This document shows positions 16,369 through 16,923 of a DNA stretch of 51,275 bases, piece after piece. A program made the position numbers and the translations under genes. Every line of letters starts with the position of its first letter. The first letter of the stretch is position 1. The notes under the pieces are model-generated. The model made no database searches. It was not told where the DNA came from and was given only the letters and a program-made list of their open reading frames with translations. This DNA is from a virus (Duplodnaviria > Heunggongvirae > Uroviricota > Caudoviricetes): the IMG/VR virus record IMGVR_UViG_3300035670_000056, positions 64,001 through 115,275 of that record. One strand, written 5' to 3'.

Positions 16369-16646
16369 TGGTAGGCGTGAGTGGATTCGAACCACCGCTT
16401 TACAGATTTTCGTACCACTATAATTTTCATTACACATTTCTGTTTTGTGGTCTGGACTTTCTCTTCATCATAACATTTCTGTTTTAGATGTTTGCCGTTA
16501 AGTCTCTACACCTTCTCATTTCTGAGCTTGGCTCGGGATTGGCAGTTAAGCTTTCCCCGAATTTGACAAATTCTACTTTAGAGATTTCTCTCTAAGCACT
16601 CAATTTACGCTAAAGTCTGTTGACTCTTCCGCTGGTCTACACGCCC
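16369..16646 (-). tRNA. Intron-split tRNA; predicted anticodon UAA (Leu codon UUA) on a class I body
   Basis: Exons 16613-16646 (34 nt) and 16369-16410 (42 nt) join into a perfect 76-nt cloverleaf with CCA. Confidence 0.85.
16411..16612 (-). mobile_element. Group I intron (IC3-like, 202 nt, no ORF)
   Basis: P1 U.G pair (ACTT/GAGT); P2 TTAGAGA-GAAA-TCTCTAA; AAATTCGGGGAA, CAATCCCGAGCCAA, AAGGTGTAGAGACT and AAAGTCC core elements; terminal G. Confidence 0.92.
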
Positions 16647-16687: not shown

Positions 16688-16715
16688 ATCTTACCACATC
16701 TTACTTACTTGTCAA
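16688..16715 (-). promoter_or_regulatory. Sigma70-type promoter with extended -10
   Basis: TTGACA-16 nt-(TGG)TAAGAT. Confidence 0.75.
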
Positions 16716-16735: not shown

Positions 16736-16819
16736 TGGTAGGGATGGAGGGACTTGCACCCCCACGGTTTTACCCACGGCTTTTTGAGAGCCGCATGTCT
16801 TCTGTTCCATCACATCCCC
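16736..16819 (-). tRNA. tRNA-Leu(CAA)
   Basis: CGGCT-CTCAAAA-AGCCG arm, long variable arm, T-loop variant TGCAAGT, CCA. Confidence 0.9.
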
Positions 16820-16829
16820 GTTTTTAAAA

Positions 16830-16923
16830 TGGTGGTTCCGCCCGGATTCGAACCGAGACCGTGCTCAAATCTAGAGCTTATCAACGTTATAAGCGTTGCG
16901 TTCTACCGTTAAACTACGGAACC
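16830..16923 (-). tRNA. tRNA(UAU) with a long variable arm
   Basis: CAACG-CTTATAA-CGTTG arm, then ATAAGCTC-TAGATTT-GAGCACGGT; canonical T-arm; CCA; 94 nt. Confidence 0.85.

Follow-up and report, generated by a model that had tools for sequence, protein, structure and literature searches.

A predicted short-arm tRNA-Leu(UAA) gene of a phage is interrupted in its anticodon by a small group I intron

Cyanobacterial and plastid genes for tRNA-Leu(UAA) carry a group I intron of the Anabaena/Nostoc type, which is inserted between U34 and A35 of the anticodon and measures about 249 nt in Anabaena. The group I intron of the cellular tRNA-Ile(CAU) gene of Azoarcus is 205 nt long, lacks an ORF and is inserted after position 36. 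The cyanobacterial and plastid intron belongs to the class designated 'Leu.3Ug', with the exon and intron borders CUU/a...g/AAAA, which has been defined by Williams (2020, bioRxiv 10.1101/2020.01.27.920355). For phages, a review stated that all introns known by 2014 lay in protein genes, despite the many tRNA genes that phages carry (PMC3984707). Type I leucine tRNAs, i.e. those with a short variable loop, are known from Streptomyces and from mitochondria. The type I tRNA-Leu(CAA) of S. coelicolor has the 5-nt variable loop ACAGC, occurs alongside type II tRNA-Leu and is a substrate of the only LeuRS of this organism, with A73 not serving as an identity element, while the E. coli LeuRS did not charge this tRNA in vitro (Fan et al. 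2019, PMC6614811). The same paper cites human mitochondrial tRNA-Leu(UUR) as a leucine tRNA of type I, which has A73 and an anticodon of the UAA type.

We analyzed a 51,275-nt stretch of a phage genome, referred to here as the window, in which a split tRNA gene is located on the minus strand. Exon 1 (16646-16613, minus strand, 34 nt, tRNA positions 1-34) provides the 5′ strand of the acceptor stem, U8 and A9, a 3-bp D stem with its 10-nt loop region, the 5′ strand of the anticodon stem and C32 U33 U34, and its acceptor, D and anticodon helices are backed by compensatory changes. The group I intron (16612-16411, minus strand, 202 nt), identified by RF00028 and covariation, comprises P1-P9, ends with a terminal G at 16411 and is devoid of an ORF. 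Exon 2 (16410-16369, minus strand) starts with A35 and A36, which complete the anticodon UAA, and continues with A37 and A38, the 3′ strand of the anticodon stem, the variable loop, the T arm, the 3′ strand of the acceptor stem, A73 (16372) and an encoded CCA (16371-16369). Upon in silico removal of 16612-16411, ARAGORN recognizes a tRNA-Leu(taa) of 76 nt whose D stem has 3 bp and which includes A73 and an encoded CCA. The variable loop of this spliced tRNA consists of five nucleotides (AAAGC) and the long arm (>10 nt) of bacterial type II tRNA-Leu is absent, while the G15:C48 pair and A73 are present. The ARAGORN fold thus bears out the initial annotation, which had described the product as a short-variable-loop tRNA with anticodon UAA, G15:C48 and A73. 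The unspliced gene is missed by ARAGORN, which calls seven other tRNAs in the window, and no second UAA tRNA was seen there by the same program. Among the window ORFs, none of more than 40 aa overlaps the split gene and hence the intron contains no endonuclease ORF.

RF00028 matches positions 16622-16430 of the minus strand with 74.8 bits (E = 3e-17), well above its gathering score of 50, and the match spans model positions 1-253 and thereby the whole model. We drew a structure comprising the tRNA helices and P1-P9 with the P3/P7 pseudoknot on the window sequence and tested it on an alignment of 62 diverse pre-tRNAs. In this alignment, 96.8% of 4312 cells pair, compared to at most 41.6% if the partners are slid by 1-3 columns, and both-sided changes are found in 53 of the 72 pairs; covariation backs every helix of the pre-tRNA. 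All six pairs of P3 are compensated, and P4, P6 and P8 are 99-100% paired. P7, the helix that holds the guanosine-binding site of group I introns, is formed by 16504-16501 with 16458-16455 (minus strand), encloses the 3′ strand of P3 together with P8, and is paired in 100% of the cells of the 62 sequences with two pairs changed on both sides. The window gene is identical in the related contig L014, and its differences from the relatives L025 and L038 are confined to compensated pairs, which lie in the intron as well as in the tRNA stems. In the case of L025, the 14 substitutions within the intron all fall into 7 base pairs, every one of which is kept. This pair-keeping covariation and the compensated substitutions in L025 indicate that the ribozyme fold is under selection, even though P5 has only 2 bp in the window intron and the extension of P1 past its three invariant pairs is poor.

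The borders of the intron are similarly constrained. The internal guide G-A-G (16599..16601, minus strand) pairs with exon nucleotides C32-U33-U34 to form P1, and both the guide and the pairs C32-G, U33-A and U34.G are invariant in 62/62 pre-tRNAs. Likewise, the last intron base is G and is followed by AAAAUC in all 62 aligned pre-tRNAs. The predicted splice sites are therefore fixed by homology, and self-splicing of the intron is expected. Together with the RF00028 match, the homologous splice sites support the initial annotation, which had proposed that an intron of 202 nt without an ORF, belonging to group I and to the tRNA-Leu(UAA) type, is inserted at U34/A35. Its insertion between positions 34 and 35 in the context CUU/...G/AAAA agrees with the class 'Leu.3Ug'. 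We assign the intron provisionally to subgroup IC3, on homology and insertion site only. In comparison to the cyanobacterial and plastid tRNA-Leu(UAA) intron, the phage intron shares the U34|A35 site, the flanking loop letters, the U.G wobble, the terminal G and the full-length RF00028 core, whereas it differs in being smaller than the Anabaena intron (202 nt) and in residing in a phage and in a short-arm (type I) host gene. The Azoarcus intron resembles the phage intron in its very small size, the lack of an ORF, its location in a tRNA anticodon loop and its GAAA-capped peripheral hairpins, but interrupts another tRNA at another insertion site.

The nearest database relatives found by blastn are the introns of Agrobacterium phage Atu_ph07 (MF403008) and of the 735-kb uncultured phage LR756501, with 73-79% identity over about 200 nt. 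Both are inserted at the identical site (...CUU | intron ...G | AAAAUC...). In contrast to the short-arm window gene, their exons form an ordinary type II tRNA-Leu(UAA) that has a long arm, U8 G9 and G12-C23. The record of Atu_ph07 (L003, MF403008.1, 112530-113607) leaves this intron-split long-arm tRNA-Leu(UAA) unannotated and instead shows the CDS of a small 'hypothetical protein' (AUZ94936.1), which covers exon 2 together with the last part of the intron. Variation in intron size is also apparent among short-arm genes. The exons of L007 (L007:8300-8600) are identical to those of the window gene, while its intron has 258 nt, in that the P9a hairpin is swapped for an insert of about 56 nt and the remainder matches. 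The short-arm tRNA-Leu(UAA) genes at L009:1993-2243 and L071:11285-11536 contain introns of 178 and 179 nt, respectively, in which P6 and P8 are trimmed. Since they are shorter than both the 202-nt intron described here and the Azoarcus intron of about 205 nt, both may count among the smallest group I introns that occur in nature.

The absence of a long variable arm raised the question of the amino acid identity of this tRNA. The short-arm body possesses a distinct signature of U8 A9, a 3-bp D stem (G/A-N-C with G-N-C/U), the loop CA-R-N-GG-N-AGA, a variable loop N-N-A-G-Y and A73, and differs from long-arm phage genes, which have U8 G9, G12-C23 and a purine at position 13. The pattern of this body with which we scanned IMG/VR imposed no condition on the anticodon, positions 8-9, the two acceptor strands or the discriminator. 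The scan returned at least 122 matches in viral contigs, and 120 of those listed fold well and are without an intron. The anticodons of these 120 listed matches are UAA (88), CAA (17), UAG (14) and AAG (1) and hence leucine throughout, from both codon boxes, and U8, A9 and A73 are present in 120/120 of them although they lay outside the search pattern. ARAGORN likewise found the intron-less short-arm body with CAA, GAG and UAG anticodons on the fetched loci. Within 151 unique genes the tertiary 15:48 pair covaries, being A:U in 117 and G:C in 27, the window gene among the latter. LeuRS does not read the anticodon, and a synthetase of this kind would be expected to serve isoacceptors that have one body in common but unrelated anticodons. 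The window gene product is therefore predicted to be a leucine tRNA of type I.

This assignment agrees with further features of the gene. Outside the long arm, the window gene has kept the E. coli-type leucine marks A73, A14, the 15:48 pair, G18G19 and U54-A58 (marks as listed in PMC6614811); A14, G18 and G19 are invariant in the 62-sequence alignment and the T loop reads UUCGAAU. The intron-less gene L202, whose acceptor and T arms are the same as those of the window gene, scores 52.2 bits on RF00005. The initial annotation had been in doubt about the charged amino acid, considering leucine or a Phe-derived body. This doubt finds no support, as the body is seen only with leucine anticodons in the matches listed, the same body is annotated as tRNA-Leu in many cultured phages and the E. 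coli-type leucine marks are retained; leucylation of the spliced tRNA is thus what these features would predict. Comparison of D arms by edit distance to 784 ARAGORN-labeled phage tRNAs was discarded as an isotype test: with no more than 2-3 letters between ordinary class I D arms, the median distance did not separate isotypes. Its one useful yield were the intron-less short-arm Leu(CAA/GAG/UAG) genes that led to the anticodon census. A G1.U72 wobble closes the end of the acceptor stem in 111/151 unique short-arm Leu genes, including that of the window, versus 22/74 long-arm phage Leu(UAA) genes.

When compared to characterized type I leucine tRNAs, the window tRNA resembles S. coelicolor tRNA-Leu(CAA) in its 5-nt variable loop, which is ACAGC there, AAAGC here and NNAGY in the phage family. 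The S. coelicolor tRNA is cellular, has the anticodon CAA and is encoded without an intron, and the likeness noted here concerns the variable loop. Human mitochondrial tRNA-Leu(UUR) is organellar, is served by a dedicated LeuRS and has a weak, atypical core, with no evidence of kinship. The same body as in the window tRNA is found, for example, in cyanophage P-RSM6, Pseudomonas phage ZC03, Enterococcus phage EFDG1 and Streptomyces phage Comrade. Their genes, all four confirmed by folding, show U8 A9, the 3-bp D stem, the loop CAA..GGCAGA, the variable loop NCAGU and A73 in combination with the anticodons UAA, UAG or CAA, and are, unlike the window gene, without an intron. Two further contigs, L012 and L036, encode other short leucine tRNAs (76-78 nt; CAA, UAG and AAG) that have U8 G9 and a different D arm, so phage tRNA-Leu may have lost the long arm on more than one occasion.

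The initial annotation had stated that its reading would be refuted if short-arm tRNA-Leu(UAA) turned out to be common in this phage group, and such genes indeed proved to be common. A scan of IMG/VR for the conserved intron 3′ end followed by an exon 2 of short-arm length detected 69 viral contigs with a short-arm gene and intron, and 61 complete split genes could be recovered. The same intron 3′ end at long-arm spacing was found in at least 119 IMG/VR contigs, all of which encode ordinary type II tRNA-Leu(UAA). The search for intron-less alleles in phages, as the initial annotation had proposed, was similarly productive, with at least 88 UAA genes of the same tRNA type. A blastn search with one intron-less gene against cultured phages gave 73 records, nearly all annotated as tRNA-Leu. 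The hosts of these phages belong to several bacterial phyla and include Streptomyces, Gordonia, Rhodococcus, Mycobacterium, Prochlorococcus, Synechococcus, Pseudomonas, Vibrio, Enterococcus, Lactobacillus, Bacillus and Myxococcus. In a collection of species genomes, the split short-arm gene was seen on only three MAG contigs, namely L194 (Chthonomonadaceae), L195 (uncultured bacterium) and L196 (Paludibacteraceae); two of their introns have about 685 nt, and that of L196 has an HNH ORF. The short-arm body pattern had no match in 301 sampled genomes from a single phylum, that of MAG L196.

The occurrence of one intron family in two types of tRNA-Leu gene can be followed on a tree of 115 unique ORF-less introns. 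On this tree, the type of the host gene (short-arm or long-arm) changes 15 times, while label shuffles average 36 changes, and at least seven changes are forced by well-supported branches. The 15 changes of host type imply that the intron has moved repeatedly between short-arm and long-arm tRNA-Leu(UAA) genes, which share the loop CUUAAAA. The window intron itself is interleaved with the introns of 69 long-arm genes. A single origin of the short-arm form together with its intron was likewise considered and is ruled out by the interleaved gene types on the tree. The longer members of the family (600-800 nt) encode proteins of about 150-180 aa, in which HNH endonuclease motifs were recognized by matches near the Pfam cut-offs. 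Since intron-less alleles are plentiful, the intron moves between gene types and relatives bear HNH motifs, the intron of the window gene is best read as an optional, mobile and phenotypically near-neutral passenger that would splice itself out.

The genomic setting is informative with respect to the role of the gene. The GC content of the window is 33.7%, and TTA is its commonest leucine codon, accounting for 34% of the leucine codons and 27 per 1000 codons overall; the neighboring tRNAs called by ARAGORN serve other A/U-rich codons. The most plausible role of the split gene is that of a UUA decoder provided by the phage itself. Upstream of the gene, at a distance of about 42 nt from the 5′ end of the tRNA, a consensus scan detected a sigma-70-like promoter (16688..16715, minus strand; TTGACA-16 nt-TAAGAT with TG; 10/12 positions, a pattern match only), and the gene is probably driven by this promoter of its own. 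Further upstream lies a neighboring long-arm (type II) tRNA-Leu(CAA) gene called by ARAGORN (16736..16819, minus strand). In the close relatives L014 (330-406), L025 (650-726) and L038 (595-671), a 77-nt short-arm Leu(CAA) gene is positioned about 87 nt upstream of the split gene. As the short-arm form in these relatives occupies the same slot as the long-arm Leu(CAA) gene of the window, the two forms replace each other.

From these elements a route from gene to charged tRNA can be proposed. Transcription would start from the sigma-70-like promoter, and the exons would fold into the tRNA helices including the anticodon stem. Exon nucleotides C32-U33-U34 would then pair with the GAG guide of the intron to form P1 with its U34.G wobble, and a free guanosine held in P7 would attack after U34. 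The terminal G (16411) would subsequently occupy the guanosine site and the exons would be joined to a 76-nt tRNA with the loop CUUAAAA and the predicted junction ...GACUU|AAAAUCUGU.... This tRNA would be aminoacylated by the host leucyl-tRNA synthetase, which is blind to the anticodon, and would decode UUA and, by assumed wobble, UUG; the wobble decoding and the use of the promoter are both inferred. A phage-encoded LeuRS was considered as the charging enzyme and rejected, as a LeuRS domain (PF13603) had no match in the phage record, which is 41% complete, or in three complete relatives of 230-238 kb. With no LeuRS domain found in these four, charging of the tRNA would fall to a host enzyme. 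The failure of the E. coli LeuRS on the Streptomyces type I tRNA suggests that acceptance may depend on the host and is not guaranteed for the host of this phage. A phage factor affecting charging or splicing may possibly be encoded elsewhere in the partially (41%) recovered genome.

We consider it highly probable that the elements described above belong to one coherent system, in which a type I tRNA-Leu(UAA) is split at U34/A35 by a small group I intron that belongs to the tRNA-Leu(UAA) family and splices itself, and is charged with leucine, the intron being a mobile passenger. If the short arm instead marked a different amino acid identity, for instance a Phe- or Lys-derived body, UUA would be read as an amino acid other than leucine. 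The missing long arm, typical of bacterial tRNA-Leu, and a D arm that is by letters alone 2-3 edits away from ordinary Lys, Ala and Thr D arms would agree with this idea, but it appears exceedingly improbable given that the body occurs with four leucine anticodons of both codon boxes and no other in 120/120 matches listed, takes the slot of the type II Leu(CAA) gene in close relatives, and would, by recoding the commonest leucine codon, change the sequence of all proteins. Both PheRS and LysRS recognize their tRNAs by way of the anticodon, and UAA belongs to neither of them. A decaying pseudogene with a dead intron could account for the minimal P5, the lack of a homing endonuclease and the missing ARAGORN call. 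This explanation can hardly be reconciled with a gene that is identical in L014 and whose differences in L025 and L038 are compensated in intron and tRNA stems, that has retained all helices of the catalytic core, a promoter-like site and an encoded CCA, and next to which no other UAA tRNA is seen in the window, and we regard it as most implausible.

While leucine identity and an intact gene are thus favored, the purpose of the intron and of the short arm deserve separate consideration. The initial annotation had suggested that splicing gates the supply of the UUA decoder and that the unspliced precursor hides its anticodon from nucleases. An intron kept as such a timer or gate, or as an anticodon shield against host nucleases, would make sense of its position within the decoder of the commonest leucine codon and of the strong purifying selection on the ribozyme fold, and host defenses that cut tRNAs exist (e.g. 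PMC13096335). Selection on the fold, however, is expected of any intron in an essential gene, and persistence without a benefit for the phage is explained by the homing endonucleases of related introns. Moreover, UAA alleles of this tRNA type that lack the intron number at least 88, L202 among them, and the intron family is found equally in long-arm genes and hops between the gene types, so that the proposed gate receives no support from an intron this optional. Neither does the proposed shield, since it is only the spliced tRNA that decodes, and the mature tRNA exposes the usual CUUAAAA loop. Retention of the intron for such a purpose is hence very unlikely. A little more credit, though still rather doubtful, may be given to the idea that phages keep their own lineage of type I leucine tRNAs, rare in cells, whose arm loss was selected to evade host nucleases or other factors that recognize the class II arm, which would be compatible with the passenger reading of the intron. 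Viral contigs often contain the short-arm body (at least 120 intron-less genes in addition to 69 contigs with the split gene) and its pattern was unseen in the 301 sampled genomes of one bacterial phylum, and a defense system that cuts the variable loop of tRNA-Tyr has been reported (PMC13096335). Many of the same phage groups, on the other hand, retain long-arm Leu tRNAs. If evasion were the correct explanation, most bacterial LeuRSs must accept arm-less tRNA-Leu in vivo.

With respect to novelty, the type and site of the intron are classical, and many phage records already include annotated short-arm tRNA-Leu genes. In the literature we searched, which lay mostly outside subscription journals, we found a description neither of group I introns in the tRNA genes of phages nor of the short-arm tRNA-Leu family of phages as such, and the huge-phage paper makes no mention of introns. 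Group I introns in phage tRNA genes thus appear to be undescribed in this literature. The most certain consequence concerns annotation: because ARAGORN misses the split gene, standard pipelines overlook the tRNA that decodes the commonest leucine codon of the phage, and the same gap affects at least 190 viral contigs by one strict pattern and, in addition, the cultured phage Atu_ph07. Second in certainty, a classical tRNA intron family is abundant in phages, where it occupies two types of tRNA-Leu gene and has HNH-bearing members; its abundance and mobility make it plausible that phages serve to spread the tRNA-Leu intron among bacteria. Least certain is the bearing on tRNA identity, where the presence of arm-less leucine tRNAs across host phyla may suggest that bacterial LeuRSs can widely do without the arm in vivo, which, if true, would be relevant for identity rules and the design of orthogonal tRNAs.

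Two further unusual tRNAs were noticed. The contig L061, which has short-arm Leu(CAA), Leu(GAG) and split Leu(UAA) genes, also encodes a 73-nt tRNA with the anticodon CUA that ARAGORN labels 'Pyl' and that may be a suppressor in a TAG-recoding phage. In the window, ARAGORN calls a 94-nt tRNA with the anticodon UAU and a long variable arm at 16830-16923, i.e. an isoleucine anticodon on a class II-like body, and a long-arm tRNA with the UAU anticodon is also present in L007, L025 and L038.
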